DNA of 42,471 bases from a virus (Duplodnaviria > Heunggongvirae > Uroviricota > Caudoviricetes). The translations under genes were made by a program, and so were the position numbers. The notes beneath the pieces were generated by a model. That model ran no database searches and was not told where the DNA came from. It saw only the letters and a list, made by a program, of their open reading frames with translations. Positions within the stretch are counted from its first letter, which is position 1. Each line of letters begins with the position of its first letter. The stretch spans positions 1 to 42,471 of the IMG/VR virus record IMGVR_UViG_2513237219_000005; one strand, written 5' to 3'. Positions 36,099-42,471 of this stretch are shown one piece after another.

Positions 36099-37454
36099 AT
36101 GTTCGACTTAATTAAGTACCTCGTTAAAAACGATATTCAGCACACTGTTTCCGATAACGGGAATATTACCGTCACCCACAATCTAGATCTGGAAGATGTT
36201 AGCGGCGTCGACGCCTTGCCGGACAATCTGACCGTGGGCGGCTGGCTCGACCTGCGCGGCACCAGCATCACCGCGCTGCCGGACAATCTGACCGTGGGCG
36301 GCTCGCTCGACCTGCGCGGCACCAGCATCACCGCGCTGCCGGACAATCTGACCGTGGGCGGCTGGCTCGACCTGGAAGGCACCAGCATCACCGCGCTGCC
36401 GGACAATCTGACCGTGGGCGGCTGGCTCGACCTGCGCGGCACCAGCATCACCGCGCTGCCGGACAATCTGACCGTGGGCGGCTCGCTCGACCTGCGCGGC
36501 ACCAGCATCACCGCGCTGCCGGACAATCTGACCGTGGGCGGCTGGCTCGACCTGCGCGGCACCAGCATCACCGCGCTGCCGGACAATCTGACCGTGGGCG
36601 GCTCGCTCGACCTGCGCGGCACCAGCATCACCGCGCTGCCGGACAATCTGACCGTGGGCGGCTCGCTCGACCTGGAAGGCACCAGCATCACCGCGCTGCC
36701 GGACAATCTGACCGTGGGCGGCTCGCTCGACCTGCGCGGCACCAGCATCACCGCGCTGCCGGACAATCTGACCGTGGGCGGCTGGCTCGACCTGGAAGGC
36801 ACCAGCATCACCGCGCTGCCGGACAATCTGACCGTGGGCGGCTCGCTCGACCTGCGCGGCACCAGCATCACCGCGCTGCCGGACAATCTGACCGTGGGCG
36901 GCTGGCTCGACCTGGAAGGCACCAGCATCACCGCGCTGCCGGACAATCTGACCGTGGGCGGCTGGCTCGACCTGCGCGGCACCAGCATCACCGCGCTGCC
37001 GGACAATCTGACCGTGGGCGGCTCGCTCGACCTGCGCGGCACCAGCATCACCGCGCTGCCGGACAATCTGACCGTGGGCGGCTGGCTCGACCTGGAAGGC
37101 ACCAGCATCACCGCGCTGCCGGACAATCTGACCGTGGGCGGCTGGCTCGACCTGCGCGGCACCAGCATCACCGCGCTGCCGGACAATCTGACCGTGGGCG
37201 GCTGGCTCTACCTGCGCCCGGAGAAGATCACGAACGTTTCTTACCGTGAAAACTGTGGTTACTCCAGCCGTACCATCTTCGCTATGTGGACCGGCAAAGA
37301 GTTTCGGATCGCTGCGGGTTGCTTCTTCGGTTCCATCGAGCAGTTCGAACAGGCAGTAGACGATAAGTATGACGGCAACGCAGCCGAAGCATACAAAAAG
37401 GCCGGGCGTGACTGCGTGGCTGAACTGACAGAAAAACTCAATCCGAAAGACTGA
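36099..37454 (+). CDS. Tandem-repeat protein with about 16 bacterial-type 20-residue LRR-like repeats
   Basis: 451 aa: 37-aa N-terminus, 16 units of LPDNLTVGG[W/S]LDL[R/E]GTSITA plus a degenerate 17th, then a 110-aa non-repetitive C-terminus. AAGGA Shine-Dalgarno. Confidence 0.75.
   Translation: MFDLIKYLVKNDIQHTVSDNGNITVTHNLDLEDVSGVDALPDNLTVGGWLDLRGTSITALPDNLTVGGSLDLRGTSITALPDNLTVGGWLDLEGTSITALPDNLTVGGWLDLRGTSITALPDNLTVGGSLDLRGTSITALPDNLTVGGWLDLRGTSITALPDNLTVGGSLDLRGTSITALPDNLTVGGSLDLEGTSITALPDNLTVGGSLDLRGTSITALPDNLTVGGWLDLEGTSITALPDNLTVGGSLDLRGTSITALPDNLTVGGWLDLEGTSITALPDNLTVGGWLDLRGTSITALPDNLTVGGSLDLRGTSITALPDNLTVGGWLDLEGTSITALPDNLTVGGWLDLRGTSITALPDNLTVGGWLYLRPEKITNVSYRENCGYSSRTIFAMWTGKEFRIAAGCFFGSIEQFEQAVDDKYDGNAAEAYKKAGRDCVAELTEKLNPKD
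36213..37215 (+). repeat. Direct tandem repeat array, 60-bp unit x about 16.7, at least 95 percent identical
   Basis: Units differ only at TGG/TCG and CGCGGC/GAAGGC; sequence lines 36241 to 37141 are in perfect register. Confidence 0.95.
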
Positions 37455-37507
37455 ATTGATTCCGGCAGCCTCCACGGTGCCGGGCTTCCAGAACAGGAGA
37501 AAAAGCG

Positions 37508-37672
37508 ATGCGATCCGAAAACCAACAGCAAGCCATGAACCTTATCGCGTTGCTGTGCCTGATGTACCACTTATCGCCAGCTGACCTTGAGGCCATCGCC
37601 CACCAGCTCGCGCACTTCGATGCAGTTTGTGATTACAGAACACAGGGGATTAACAATGTTGCGCGTTATTGA
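37508..37672 (+). CDS. Hypothetical small protein (untracked ORF)
   Basis: 54 codons, hand-translated; AGGAGA Shine-Dalgarno; hydrophobic core; overlaps the exonuclease start. Confidence 0.3.
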   Translation: MRSENQQQAMNLIALLCLMYHLSPADLEAIAHQLAHFDAVCDYRTQGINNVARY

Positions 37673-38327
37673 TACTGAGACTACCGGCCTTGAAGGCGGC
37701 CCGGAAACCGTGGTGGAAATCGCCAGCGTCGATATCGTAGACGGCGTGATCTGCAACCCCATGAGCGACCTCGTTAAGCCAGGTGTGGCGATCGGATTTG
37801 AGGCCATGGCTATTCACCATATCACCGAAGACATGGTGGAAGGCGCGCCGCTGCTCAGTGAAGTAATTGGCCGCTATATGGGTGCCGACGCATACGTCGC
37901 CCACAACGCGAAGTTTGATAAAGCCAAGCTCCCCACAATGAACGCTCCATGGATCTGCACCGCCAAGCTGGCGCGCTCGCTCCTACCGGAGCACAAGAGC
38001 CACAGTAACCAGTACCTGCGTTACAGCCTCGGGCTGAAACCGGAAGTACCGGAAGGACTTTACGCCCACCGCGCGCTGTATGACTGCTACGTCACCGCCG
38101 AATTGTTGCTCTATATGGGCCGCCTGGCGAAATGGACGATGGGCGAAATGCGGGCCATCTCCAATAACCCTTCCCTGCTGCATGCGCTCCGCTTCGGTAA
38201 GCATAAAGGCGTCCCGTTCGCAGAGCTGGCAAAAACAGAACCGGGTTACCTGCGCTGGCTCGTTGCCAACAGCGACGACGAAGACGTGCTGTTTACGGCT
38301 GAACACTGGCTGAGCGGGGGTAAATGA
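37656..38327 (+). CDS. ExoX-like 3'-5' exonuclease (DnaQ/DEDDh)
   Basis: Colinear with E. coli ExoX as recalled: MLRVIDTETTGL, VAHNAKFD, HRALYDCYVTA, C-terminal GKHKGVPFAELAKTEPGYLRWL. Start at MLRVID, not track start 37587. Confidence 0.85.
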   Translation: MLRVIDTETTGLEGGPETVVEIASVDIVDGVICNPMSDLVKPGVAIGFEAMAIHHITEDMVEGAPLLSEVIGRYMGADAYVAHNAKFDKAKLPTMNAPWICTAKLARSLLPEHKSHSNQYLRYSLGLKPEVPEGLYAHRALYDCYVTAELLLYMGRLAKWTMGEMRAISNNPSLLHALRFGKHKGVPFAELAKTEPGYLRWLVANSDDEDVLFTAEHWLSGGK

Positions 38328-38995
38328 TGGGTACTCCAGTGCTGATCCTCGGTGATTCTGGCGCGGGCAAGTCCTACAGCCTGCGCAACTTCAATCCGGA
38401 CGATGTGATGCTGCTCCAGTGCATCCCCAAAATGCTGCCGTTCAAGTCTGCGGGCTGGAAACTTCACGGCAAGCTGCTGCCAGACGGAAGCAAACAGCGC
38501 GGTAACGTTCTGCGCTCGGATAACTGGGAAACGGTGCTGGACACCATCTATCGCATGGTGCAGTCGAAAACGCGCCGCGTCCTGATCATCGACGATTTCC
38601 AGGTGGTCATGCAGCACGAAAACATGAACCGCGCGTACCAGACCGGCTATGCCAAGTTCACCGAAATGGCAGATCACATCTGGCGAATCATCATGGCGGC
38701 CACCGAACTGCCGGACGACTTCCGCGTTTATTTCCTGGCTCACACCGAAGAGACCGAGGGAAAGATCCGCATGAAGACTACCGGAAAGATGCTCAACGAA
38801 AAGCTGACGCCAGAGGGCTATTTCTCCATCGTGCTGCGCGCCATCAAGAAGGACGGCAAACACGTTTTTCTCATCAAAGGCGATGACAACGACACCGCCA
38901 AAGCTCCGCCCGACCTATTCCCGGACCAGACGGAAATGGACAACGACCTCCACGCCGTAGACGTGGCTATCACCGAATTTATGACCGAATTGTAA
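38324..38995 (+). CDS. P-loop ATPase, Sak4-like RecA-core recombination protein
   Basis: Walker A GDSGAGKS and Walker B RVLIIDD in a short RecA-core-sized protein. Confidence 0.6.
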   Translation: MMGTPVLILGDSGAGKSYSLRNFNPDDVMLLQCIPKMLPFKSAGWKLHGKLLPDGSKQRGNVLRSDNWETVLDTIYRMVQSKTRRVLIIDDFQVVMQHENMNRAYQTGYAKFTEMADHIWRIIMAATELPDDFRVYFLAHTEETEGKIRMKTTGKMLNEKLTPEGYFSIVLRAIKKDGKHVFLIKGDDNDTAKAPPDLFPDQTEMDNDLHAVDVAITEFMTEL

Positions 38996-39011
38996 CTTTG
39001 AGGATTTAACG

Positions 39012-39743
39012 ATGAACCAACCAATGACTTTTATGTGGAACAACGAAACGGCTGAGATGGCGAAGAAAGCTGGCGCAACAGGCGGGATCAGCGAAACCGG
39101 CGCTTACGAGGGCGAAATCGTTTCTGCGGTGTACACCTTCGGGAAAGATGGCAGCCAGTCCCAGGCGCTCGAACTGAGCCTGGACTCGAACGGGGCAAAA
39201 GCAAATTACCTGCGCATTAACTTCCTCGGGAAAGACGGCCAGCAGACTTTCGGCATGGGGCTGGTATCAGCGCTTATGTGGGTCGCCCAGGTCAAACAGG
39301 CGCAACCGCAGCAGGTACAGGGTCAAAACGGCATCGAATGGCACTGCCCGGCACTGGTTGGCAAAAAGGTGGGCCTGTTCCTTCAGAAGGTGCTGTACAC
39401 CAAAAACGACGGCGGCGACGGCTACAAGTTCGAAGTGCGCCACGTTTTCCAGCCGGGAACGCGTAAGACCTACGCTGAGCACGCTGAAAATGCCCAGGCA
39501 GAAGCGATCGCCGCGCTTGAACTGTCGATGAAGGATAAGGACGAACGTATCCACAGCGGCGCGCAGTTCTCTGGCCCGCGCAATGCCCAACATGGCGGTA
39601 ACCCTTATGCAAATCAGACTGGCGGCGCACCACAGTCTCGCTTGCAGCAGAACAGCGGTCAGCCACCGGTCGACTTTGACGACGATATCCCATTTGCGCC
39701 GATTGGTCTCCCGTTCCCTTCTCACTCTATCTATGCGTTATGA
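39012..39743 (+). CDS. Putative ssDNA-binding protein with SSB-like acidic C-terminal tip
   Basis: Gln/Gly-rich linker ending DFDDDIPF; adjacent to the Sak4-like ATPase. Confidence 0.55.
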   Translation: MNQPMTFMWNNETAEMAKKAGATGGISETGAYEGEIVSAVYTFGKDGSQSQALELSLDSNGAKANYLRINFLGKDGQQTFGMGLVSALMWVAQVKQAQPQQVQGQNGIEWHCPALVGKKVGLFLQKVLYTKNDGGDGYKFEVRHVFQPGTRKTYAEHAENAQAEAIAALELSMKDKDERIHSGAQFSGPRNAQHGGNPYANQTGGAPQSRLQQNSGQPPVDFDDDIPFAPIGLPFPSHSIYAL

Positions 39744-39897
39744 CTCACGCTCACGACGACATCAGGGTTGGCACACTGCGCCTTCCCTGGCTCAAAGAGA
39801 AAAACGGATGGTTGCTGCCGTGGGGTGATGTCGTTACCAACCCACTGAAGGCGCAACGACTGGCTGAAGAACTTAACGAAAAGCAGGTGGCAGCATG
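39740..39897 (+). CDS. Hypothetical small protein
   Basis: 52 codons, hand-translated, coupled to both neighbours by ATGA overlaps. Confidence 0.35.
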
Positions 39898-40800
39898 AAT
39901 TACGGATTTGTAAGTGTTTGCGTTGAGCAATTCAATGAAGCGGTTAAGCTGCCACCCGCACACAATCCAGCATCACGAATTTGGCAGCGCCCGTTCCTTA
40001 AATGGGCTGGCGGCAAATATTCGCTGCTGCCGGAACTGGATCGCCTGATCCCCGCAGGGAAACGCCTTATTGAGCCTTTTGTGGGTGGCGGCTCGGTGTT
40101 CCTTAACTCAGACAAGCACGAACGCTTTCTTCTGGCTGACGTCAACGCTGACCTGATTAACCTGTATCAGATGCTGGCGGTGGTCCCCGACTCGGTGATC
40201 TATGAGGCAATGAAGGCATTCAGGCATCTGAATGATGCCGAAAACTACACGGTAATTCGTGAAGCATTCAACGCGCAGCGGCTGGATGCGGTTGAGCGCG
40301 CAGCAGCGCTCCTTTACCTCAACCGGCACTGCTTCAACGGGCTGATCCGTTATAACCTGGACGGTTTTTTTAACGTCGGCTTTGGGAAATATAAAGCGCC
40401 ATATTTCCCGGAAGAAGAGATCAGGGCATTTAAGCGGAAGGCTCACGCATGCGTATTCATGAATGCAGGCTTCAGGCGCACGATCGCGCTGGCAGGTGAT
40501 GGTGACGTCGTTTACTGCGATCCGCCTTATGAACCGCTGCCCGGCACCGCTGGTTTCACTAACTACGCGGCTGGTGGGTTCTCATGGGATAGCCAGGTAG
40601 AACTTACGGAAAGCTGTGTGGCAGCCCACCAGCGGGGGGCAAAAGTGGTGATCAGCAATTCTACCGCTCCGCGCGTAATTGAACTTTACGAACAGCACGG
40701 CTTCACGCTGCACCGCGTCAGTGCTCGCCGGGCTATATCCAGCAAAGGCAGTACCCGCGAAACAGCGAGTGATGTCGTAGCCACTTTGGGAGTGCAGTGA
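39895..40800 (+). CDS. dam: DNA adenine methyltransferase, Dam family (GATC type)
   Basis: Colinear with E. coli Dam as recalled: FLKWAGGKY, EPFVGGGSVFLN, LYLNRHCFNGLIRYNLDG, DPPY. Confidence 0.9.
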   Translation: MNYGFVSVCVEQFNEAVKLPPAHNPASRIWQRPFLKWAGGKYSLLPELDRLIPAGKRLIEPFVGGGSVFLNSDKHERFLLADVNADLINLYQMLAVVPDSVIYEAMKAFRHLNDAENYTVIREAFNAQRLDAVERAAALLYLNRHCFNGLIRYNLDGFFNVGFGKYKAPYFPEEEIRAFKRKAHACVFMNAGFRRTIALAGDGDVVYCDPPYEPLPGTAGFTNYAAGGFSWDSQVELTESCVAAHQRGAKVVISNSTAPRVIELYEQHGFTLHRVSARRAISSKGSTRETASDVVATLGVQ

Positions 40801-41042
40801 TGATGAAGCTGATTAATCGCAGTAAGCAATCACCTATTGGTCGCCGCGCTTGCGATGTTGCGCTGGCCGCTCACTTGCAAACATATGGCGACTATGGGCG
40901 AAGCAAGATGAAAGAGACTTATACGGTGAAGGTTGAAGGCGTGAAAGTCTGGGTGGAGGTGGTGAACCGAAAGGCGAGCTACGTGGCCACAGCGATGACC
41001 GGCATGCGCCGTCTCCGCTCCCTGCCCGGGCAGGTTGGTTGA
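40797..41042 (+). CDS. Hypothetical protein
   Basis: 81-aa track ORF coupled to the Dam gene. Confidence 0.4.
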   Translation: MMMKLINRSKQSPIGRRACDVALAAHLQTYGDYGRSKMKETYTVKVEGVKVWVEVVNRKASYVATAMTGMRRLRSLPGQVG

Positions 41043-41083
41043 AAAAGATTTTGAATGGCCCGAACGGGCAACTGGAGAGAGCT

Positions 41084-41281
41084 ATGGATGATATTTTGGT
41101 AACGTCAGACCTGACCAGTCGCTACAAAATTTCACGCAAAACCCTTTGGTCATGGCAAAGTGCAGACACAATGCCTCGGGGCTTCGTATGCCCGTTCCCA
41201 CCCCCTGACTGGCCCGGCAACCCTAACCGCTGGCGCTCTGAGTCAATCAAAGAGTGGGAGGATAAAAAGAAGATAAATTAA
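41084..41281 (+). CDS. AlpA-like DNA-binding protein (excisionase or regulator)
   Basis: Pattern SRKTLWSW...FPPP...RW...IKEW resembles AlpA-family proteins; start at MDDIL within track ORF 41039..41281; converges on int. Confidence 0.55.
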
Positions 41282-42471
41282 CTGAAGGGCTCTCCGATGA
41301 TCTCTTCAAGATGGCTCTGCCAAACGCGGAGCCAGTGTTTCTGATCATCGATATAGTCATGAAGGTTGTAATGCGCCATAACCCCCACCATCTGATGCCC
41401 GAGCAGCTTTTCAATTACGTGCGGCGGGCAACCTAACTCAGAGAGATTTGTGGCTATCGTCCGCCTCATATCATGAAGCGACCACTCTGCCATACCTGTT
41501 CCATTCCAAATAGAACGGGCGTAATTGGATGCCACAGGTGAATGAACGGGCGAATCTTTGATCCCGCCATCAATTTTACGTTGTGAAGTCACCAGGTGAT
41601 TGGTGTTTATTTTCTTGAGGTGATTTCTGACCAGGTTAACGGCGGCGTCTGAGAGTCCCCTTCTAATATGTACCCGAGTTTTATAACTGCCCGCAGGCAC
41701 GACCCACTCATTATCATCCAATCGAAACCATGATCTCTCACTAAGTCGAATCTCAGCCGTACGGCATCCGGTAAGCATAATAAATTTCACCAGGAAAACG
41801 GACTCTATCGACATATGGCTTTTCAACCACTGATAGATTTTGCGCAGATCGTCATCGTCCATCCTGCGAGTTCTCTTTTTAGGCTTTTGCCCGACATCAG
41901 ATGGCAGTAATCCCTCGAGTGGGTTTGAGGCGATCACACTTCTGTTAACGCAGAACCTAAACGCCCGTTTGCACAGCGAAAGCATGTAATGAGCCATCAC
42001 CCTGCTTTCTATAGAATCGAAGACGTTGATCCAGTGCATTTTCGCTGTGTTATCGACTTTGACATTCTTCATCGGTTCGGCGATATGTTTCTCAAACACC
42101 TGGCGATAGTAATCGACTTTAACTAGCCCGTTAGCGATACAGTGCCTTTCAATCCAGTAATTGAACGCTTCGGCAACGGACATCGCTTCCTGTCGGGTCT
42201 GCTTATCCAGCTTCACCTGCTCTCGCGGATCCAGACCCTCAGTTAACCAGTTTCTGAATTGTTGGCGACGCTCTCTTGCCTGGGTGATACTCATTGCAGG
42301 ATAATCACCAACATTGAGTTTTACCGCTTTACCGGCCCAGCGATACCGATAGAAAAATGATATTTTTCCGGCCTGGCTGATTCTGGCGTTGAGCCCGTGC
42401 GAATCAGAAATAATCTCGATATCATCTCTTTTCTTGCCGAGCGCCTTCCTGAGCTTTGTGTCGGTGATCAT
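41278..42471 (-). CDS. int: Tyrosine integrase, P4-like
   Basis: N-terminus [10 protein letters not shown]...[10 protein letters not shown] is P4-type; C-terminal catalytic region with HDMRRT and LLGH...MAHY (Tyr). Start codon is at 42469-42471. Confidence 0.9.

Follow-up and report, generated by a model that had tools for sequence, protein, structure and literature searches.

The window analysed here, all 42,471 nt of the IMG/VR virus record IMGVR_UViG_2513237219_000005, comes from a lambda-like temperate phage whose early-left operon contains three consecutive genes for an ExoX-like exonuclease, a Sak4-like ATPase and a single-stranded DNA (ssDNA)-binding protein (SSB). These genes probably form a homologous-recombination (Rec) module, a variant of the Sak4–SSB system of phage HK620. 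We infer a division of labour in which the SSB would coat phage ssDNA through its predicted oligonucleotide/oligosaccharide-binding (OB) fold and its acidic C-terminal tail would recruit the cognate Sak4 onto the SSB-covered DNA; Sak4, a core-only RecA-like ATPase, would anneal complementary single strands in an ATP-dependent manner, and the translationally coupled ExoX-like 3'-5' exonuclease would supply the nuclease function, either by end resection or by 3'-flap trimming. The SSB tail appears to be modular: it carries the host-type tip DFDDDIPF, capped by a 15-residue peptide that is seemingly under selection and would alter the docking of partners. The Sak4–SSB pair is already known and characterised, and DnaQ-like nucleases have already been noted in lambdoid Rec modules, so that the combination of an upstream ExoX-like gene, an exact host tip and no anti-RecBCD gene is a variant combination rather than a new kind of module. 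The capped tip is the only feature of the module for which no description was found; the open-access literature yielded neither a paper with the extension sequences nor an account of a tip capped in this way.

A Sak4–SSB pair and an ExoX-like exonuclease

HK620 and the window share a sak4 gene followed by a gene for an OB-type SSB ('SSB-2') in a lambdoid early-left operon, with 47% and 37% identity between the respective proteins (PMC5928155). Specifically, the Sak4-like protein aligns end to end with HK620 Sak4 (HkaL; 223 versus 226 residues, E=2e-70) and matches the PHROG family phrog_2872, 'Sak4-like ssDNA annealing protein', over residues 2-221 (8.3e-84). It contains the Walker A (GDSGAGKS, residues 10-17) and Walker B (VLIIDD, residues 86-91) motifs and lacks the RecA C-terminal domain, in agreement with the minimal, Sak4-like RecA-core ATPase put forward in the original prediction, which was made from the sequence alone. 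The Pfam family AAA_24 (PF13479) is matched barely above its cut-off (27.7 bits versus 27), and a sequence search of the Protein Data Bank (PDB) returned noise only, with no match at E<=1; a RecA-like core fold is suggested by the identity to HK620 Sak4. ATP-dependent annealing of ssDNA by Sak4, stimulated by the cognate SSB, has been shown for HK620 (PMC5928155).

The 243-aa protein encoded by the third gene matches phrog_743, 'single strand DNA binding protein' (9.4e-45), and HkaK, the Sak4-stimulating SSB of HK620 (E=3e-23). Pfam gave no match to it, DUF669 (E<=0.01) and PF00436 included, and DUF669 had no match even at E<=1 when 47 members of the family were searched (the 243-aa protein plus 46 others, with HK620 HkaK included); by contrast, the canonical SSB gp35 of phage epsilon34 scores 1.9e-37 against PF00436. 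The PDB sequence search found matches to the tail only and none to the core. In an AlphaFold2 model based on 46 homologues, a confident core spans residues about 30-175 (predicted local distance difference test (pLDDT) 86-95) and the tail is disordered. The top structural matches of the predicted OB fold are ssDNA binders, and a Foldseek comparison with viral models retrieved DUF669 proteins and phage SSBs, the top match being a DUF669 protein (E=5e-14). The relationship to DUF669 is thus visible through PHROG and fold comparison only, since the Pfam profile search finds none. Of the two outcomes that had been proposed as a check on this protein, the DUF669 profile match did not materialise, whereas an OB fold is predicted. 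The 243-aa protein is assigned to the HK620-type phage SSBs, with a predicted OB-fold ssDNA-binding core. In HK620, the SSB boosts Sak4 annealing and recombineering, and its last six residues, which are needed for this effect, load the phage's own Sak4 onto SSB-coated ssDNA (PMC5928155).

The ExoX-like protein is 49% identical over its full length to ExoX of Escherichia coli K-12 (BLASTP, residues 1-221 versus 1-219 of 223 and 220 aa), matches the E. coli ExoX structure (PDB 4fzx, E=5.7e-48) and exceeds the Pfam cut-offs for both RNase_T (3.7e-20) and ExoX-like_C (PF20600; 2.6e-8, 33.5 bits versus a cut-off of 26.5), the latter being the C-terminal domain that it shares with ExoX. Its DEDDh motifs are intact and align with those of E. 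coli ExoX (D6-x-E8, HNAKFD at residues 83-88 and HRALYD at residues 138-143). The proposed DnaQ-type exonuclease colinear with host ExoX is therefore confirmed at the level of sequence, and the protein is assigned to the ExoX subfamily of DEDDh exonucleases, the family assignment implying 3'-5' polarity. Whereas E. coli exoX is a repair gene that stands alone, the gene in the window is carried by a phage, shares a module with two other genes and is translationally coupled to sak4. A survey of lambdoid Rec modules counts SSB-2 and Sak4 among their components and lists DnaQ-like nucleases as likely members (PMC12315714). The nuclease may resect ends to leave 5' tails, or it may remove 3' flaps once annealing has taken place.

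The three genes fill the slot occupied by gam, bet and exo in lambda, because they are followed by a homologue of lambda orf60a (DUF1317), a gene that sits directly downstream of exo in lambda; the homologue adjoins the SSB gene and marks the downstream edge of the Red-equivalent slot. None of the open reading frames (ORFs) of the early-left operon (35166-41281) matches the Exo/RecE, Beta/RecT, Erf, Gam or Abc2 families in Pfam or PHROGs, which bears out the original proposal that a non-Red module replaces lambda-type Exo and Beta. The likeness to lambda Red (Gam-Beta-Exo) is one of genome position, in the early-left operon and directly upstream of orf60a/DUF1317; the two systems have no homologous proteins. 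The nuclease of the module is 3'-5' by family assignment rather than 5'-3' as in Red, its annealase is RecA-like rather than Rad52-like, and it comes with its own SSB and without Gam.

No RecBCD inhibitor is recognisable in the same operon, and the Chi octamer GCTGGTGG occurs 28 times in the window (19 on the - strand and 9 on the + strand; for example, at 2914, 4501 and 40626), compared with an expectation of 1.6 +/- 1.3 and a maximum of 6 in dinucleotide-preserving shuffles. Because its genome is Chi-rich and lacks a recognisable RecBCD inhibitor, the phage probably also relies on host RecBCD, in agreement with a published rule by which Chi-richness and the use of host RecBCD go together with the lack of an anti-RecBCD gene in lambdoid phages (PMC12315714).

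Comparison with HK620 and epsilon34 shows where the module departs from its relatives. HK620 has no exonuclease, encodes the RecBCD modifier Abc2 and bears an SSB tail that is likewise acidic with an aromatic motif but ends in NDYPPF at the true C-terminus; the window, by contrast, has an ExoX-like nuclease upstream of sak4, no recognisable anti-RecBCD gene and a tail in which DFDDDIPF is followed by 15 residues. The Rec module of the Salmonella phage epsilon34, made up of Erf, SSB gp35, DnaQ-like gp34 and Abc2, likewise brings an annealing protein and a 3'-5' exonuclease together with an SSB, whose tail (...DFDDDIPFAPVTLPFPRHAIHAI) is of the same tip-plus-extension family. It differs from the module in its canonical PF00436 SSB core, its Erf annealase, its Rv2179c-like nuclease and its Abc2. 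The Rv2179c-like 3'-5' exonucleases are unrelated to the ExoX-like family and lie beside a Sak4–SSB pair in one Kluyvera locus (L004) as well as beside Erf and SSB in epsilon34; because this family, too, adjoins such genes, SSB/annealase modules have recruited 3'-5' exonucleases more than once. Locus L004 (positions 5315-7167, Kluyvera sichuanensis) encodes an HK620-like Sak4 and an SSB-2 with the tail ...YEYEGNDF, followed by an Rv2179c-like exonuclease of the epsilon34 gp34 type, and so provides a second, independent case in which a DnaQ-superfamily nuclease accompanies a Sak4–SSB module. A fusion of SSB and exonuclease in this locus was considered and ruled out, as the ORF list shows separate genes.

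Several points weigh against a recombination module that works in the manner of HK620. Sak4 family proteins are also tied to phage replication rather than to recombination as such. The HK620 tail NDYPPF stands at a free C-terminus, in contrast to the internal tip of the window's SSB, and the HK620 loading mechanism may therefore not transfer unchanged. In addition, the usual effect of ExoX and other DnaQ-type 3'-5' exonucleases in E. coli is to counteract recombination (PMC12315714), which makes a pro-recombination role of the nuclease an assumption. The module might instead serve chiefly the replication of phage DNA, with the SSB guarding lagging-strand ssDNA, Sak4 aiding restart or the transition to rolling-circle replication, and with the nuclease proofreading or trimming primers. 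Such a role would fit the PHROG label of the nuclease family ('DNA polymerase exonuclease subunit'), the presence in this phage of its own O-like initiator and DnaB-like helicase, and the implication of lambda Rec functions in the theta-to-sigma transition of replication (PMC12315714). However, the nuclease is closest to stand-alone ExoX and not to the epsilon subunit of DNA polymerase III, which it matches only at E about 3e-4; no polymerase is encoded in the examined phage region (29500-42471), and the module occupies the Rec slot rather than the replication operon. We consider a chiefly replicative module unlikely and retain homologous recombination as the probable function.

Conservation of the module across genomes

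The module is common in enterobacterial prophages. Among 80 related viral contigs from IMG/VR, retrieved through the SSB, the order ExoX-like gene, sak4 and SSB gene is found in 78 loci, over a range of SSB identities from 99% down to 60%. The two exceptions concern the nuclease: no ExoX-like gene was detected in one locus (L079), and in the other (L089) it lies downstream on the opposite strand. Complete E. coli genomes contain the module in 9 of 5426 cases, where its genes are annotated as exoX, AAA family ATPase, hypothetical protein and DUF1317. When the SSB alignment was used to scan contigs of bacterial genomes, host SSB tips dominated the matches, and only 8 loci emerged, 5 of them with a true relative of the SSB core.

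A host-type SSB tip capped by 15 residues

The SSB had been described as a protein ending in DFDDDIPF, the C-terminal tip by which the host SSB recruits its partners. The motif is present, all eight residues are identical to the tip of E. coli SSB (...MDFDDDIPF-COOH), with whose chain C-termini it aligns, and in both proteins it follows a disordered Gln/Gly-rich linker; however, it is not C-terminal in the window's SSB, where 15 residues follow, and the core that precedes it is not of the PF00436 type. The linker differs in length and sequence among SSB homologues. Of 120 homologue clusters, 112 retain the tip in the form DD[DGV]IPF and 8 are truncated or frameshifted; given this conservation, its occurrence is far beyond chance. 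The ssDNA-binding fold and the conservation of the motif on which the original prediction depended are thus both found, the former as a predicted OB fold. Among the 112 intact clusters, 96 end exactly at DD[DGV]IPF (92 of them exactly at DDDIPF), with an acidic tail that closes on an aromatic residue at a free C-terminus, whereas the window's SSB has no such free end; 3 clusters carry one extra Asn past the tip, and 13, including the window's SSB, carry an extension of 15-16 residues of the same family. Four homologues (P0011, P0084, P0094 and P0100, one of them from a complete E. coli chromosome) have frameshifted or truncated SSBs from which the tail is gone, pointing to occasional gene decay in prophages or to assembly errors.

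Could the extension have no function of its own and reflect no more than read-through at the boundary with the following gene? The stop codon of the SSB gene does overlap the start of the downstream DUF1317 gene, and SSBs that are 95-96% identical to that of the window (loci L037-L043) end at IPF-stop without any extension. In DNA alignments, a segment of approximately 100 nt has been replaced between these loci and the window; it opens shortly ahead of the tip and reaches as far as the next gene's start. On the other side, the SSB-2 extensions exist in 12 distinct DNA versions (45 nt) that encode only 3 peptides, with 15 of the 21 variable sites at third codon positions, and the extensions of epsilon34-type SSBs give similar figures. 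The same peptide family also follows DDDIPF on unrelated, canonical PF00436 SSBs that lie beside Erf and have different downstream genes (epsilon34, mEp235 and CP-1639), and one locus (L044) has the extension without a downstream DUF1317 gene. A functionless extension is accordingly disfavoured as very improbable. Presence of the extension shows no association with the presence of the ExoX-like or the DUF1317 gene, tip-ending and extended forms having the same neighbours.

A scan of viral contigs for DDDIPF followed by AP returned at least 120 loci; among the matches listed, 94 are canonical SSBs, 7 are SSB-2 and 19 are other or partial proteins, and the extensions fall into AP[IV][GT]L[PQM][FY]P.H.I..[ILV], APLHHLAGA and short APEWR/APAWLI forms. 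The form APLHHLAGA is found on SSBs that have their nearest database relatives in Pseudomonas phages and once on a Sak4-adjacent SSB-2 (L203). Across approximately 2 Mb of phage DNA, all 110 of 110 matches to extension peptides lie directly past an IPF tip, and none of these 110 matches places the peptide at the C-terminus of another phage protein. Extensions seen in L092, L203 and other loci among the matches listed include APLHHLAGA, APEWR(G), AP[AV]WLI and APPFRGKQLLAI; some of the extended SSB cores among these matches resemble neither canonical SSB nor SSB-2. A reading of 'PIGLPF' as a beta-clamp-binding motif (consensus QLxLxL) was dropped as a main idea, as the APLHHLAGA and APEWR families do not fit it.

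Judged by these patterns of substitution and occurrence, the extension is a peptide that is under selection and that unrelated phage SSB scaffolds have exchanged. It tracks neither the type of SSB core nor the type of annealase and, on limited evidence, it tracks the host group. Most likely it changes which partners can dock on the tail. More specifically, and only tentatively, the post-tip peptide may be a distinct, horizontally exchanged docking or gating cassette, acting either as a selective adaptor or as a second, host-specific docking site. This proposal draws on the occurrence of the peptide only past DDDIPF, on at least two unrelated SSB cores and with different annealases (Erf or Sak4), as well as on its division into families by host clade, with AP[IV][GT]LP[FY]P.H.I.A[ILV] in phages of enterobacteria and APLHHLAGA in Pseudomonas phages. 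If it is true, removal of the free terminal carboxylate could make a selective adaptor of the otherwise promiscuous host-type tip, one that would exclude host nucleases and helicases while still serving the phage's partners.

A different use of the tip had been suggested originally, namely that the phage protein recruits, or competes for, the host SSB interactome: the SSB would attract or titrate host SSB partners (ExoI, RecQ, RecO, PriA, the chi subunit and others) through its host-identical tip. The identity of the tip over eight residues and its position at a free C-terminus in most intact homologue clusters are in keeping with this suggestion, and Red-beta and similar annealing proteins reportedly bind host SSB at its last seven residues (PMC13490951). 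Yet the tip of the window's SSB is followed by 15 residues, and partner pockets anchor the terminal carboxyl of the last Phe, RecO doing so with Arg132 (PMC3152348); because these pockets hold that carboxyl, an internal tip should not bind them unless the extension is removed. Furthermore, the sole experimental data for this SSB family, those from HK620, show the tail serving the phage's own Sak4 (PMC5928155). What stands of the suggestion is the host-identical tip, whereas the capping of that tip and the HK620 precedent speak against its use on host partners. Such a hijack is, for the capped protein, the weaker reading, to which we give a low probability; it is conceivable for the many relatives with a free tip. 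We favour a tail that serves the phage's own Rec module.

The last residues of SSB form a hub that recruits genome-maintenance proteins and phage annealing proteins and that is used to predict recombineering in new hosts. A peptide that occurs naturally, is under selection, can be swapped and covers this hub would offer a handle on which partners need a free C-terminus and, more broadly, on the ways in which phages adjust the use they make of host SSB partners. The module as a whole adds one more combination to the already catalogued diversity of lambdoid recombination modules and is of practical interest as a candidate three-gene recombineering cassette for enterobacteria, comprising a nuclease, an annealase and its cognate SSB.

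Locus layout and neighbouring genes

The calls and coordinates first proposed for the three genes, all on the + strand, are borne out (Table 1). The ExoX-like gene starts at an ATG at 37656, preceded by the ribosome-binding site (RBS) GGGGA, and stops at 38327; the ATG of the Sak4-like gene at 38324 overlaps this stop (ATGATG). The SSB gene begins at an ATG at 39012, 16 nt past the sak4 stop and behind the RBS GAGGA, and its stop at 39743 overlaps the start of the DUF1317 gene in the sequence ATGA. No terminator-like or promoter-like site was found on the + strand between 35327 and 40347; given the overlapping or abutting genes and the lack of such sites, the three genes are most simply read as part of one transcript.

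Table 1 Features of the Rec module and of its immediate neighbours in the window
Feature	Position	Strand	Evidence
Small ORF, 54 aa	37508..37672	+	RBS AGGAG, ATG; overlaps the start of the exonuclease gene
ExoX-like DnaQ-superfamily (DEDDh) exonuclease, 223 aa	37656..38327	+	Pfam, PDB, ExoX identity, motifs
Sak4-type, core-only RecA-like putative annealing ATPase, 223 aa	38324..38995	+	PHROG, Pfam, HK620 identity, Walker motifs
Phage SSB, HK620 HkaK type ('SSB-2'), 243 aa	39012..39743	+	phrog_743, HkaK identity
Predicted OB-fold core of the SSB, residues about 30-175	39099..39536	+	AlphaFold2 model
Disordered Gln/Gly/Asn-rich linker, residues about 181-220	39552..39671	+	pLDDT 44-53, without secondary structure
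DFDDDIPF motif, residues 221-228, internal	39672..39695	+	Read from the sequence
15-residue extension past the tip, APIGLPFPSHSIYAL	39696..39740	+	Read from the sequence
DUF1317 gene, lambda orf60a homologue	39740..39898	+	Pfam DUF1317 7.7e-19; 54% identity to orf60a

The small ORF that overlaps the start of the ExoX-like gene has no Pfam or PHROG match. By tblastn, almost all of the 80 related loci have it immediately before the ExoX-like gene, with 40-100% identity, and it may be a fourth gene of the module. A relationship to HK620 hkaM was ruled out, as the two have no similarity.

Over this region, the window is approximately 97% identical to Citrobacter phage Omnitron. Upstream of the module lie genes for a cI-type repressor, a cII-like regulator, the O-like initiator and the DnaB-like helicase; downstream lie those for DUF1317, a Dam-type methyltransferase, an excisionase (xis) and an integrase (int). 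The methyltransferase, an N6-adenine enzyme by its family (PF02086, 2e-57), is encoded at 39895-40800 on the + strand, between the Rec module and xis/int. The integrase ORF (41278-42471, - strand) runs off the end of the window, which places the prophage boundary outside it. At 36099-37454 (+ strand), within a stretch of 65% G+C, a 451-aa protein is encoded that consists of about 17 tandem 20-residue repeats with the pattern ALPDNLTVGG[WS]LDL[RE]GTSIT. It has weak leucine-rich-repeat-like and assorted repeat matches only. Related loci match it over stretches of different length, a sign that the number of repeats may vary.

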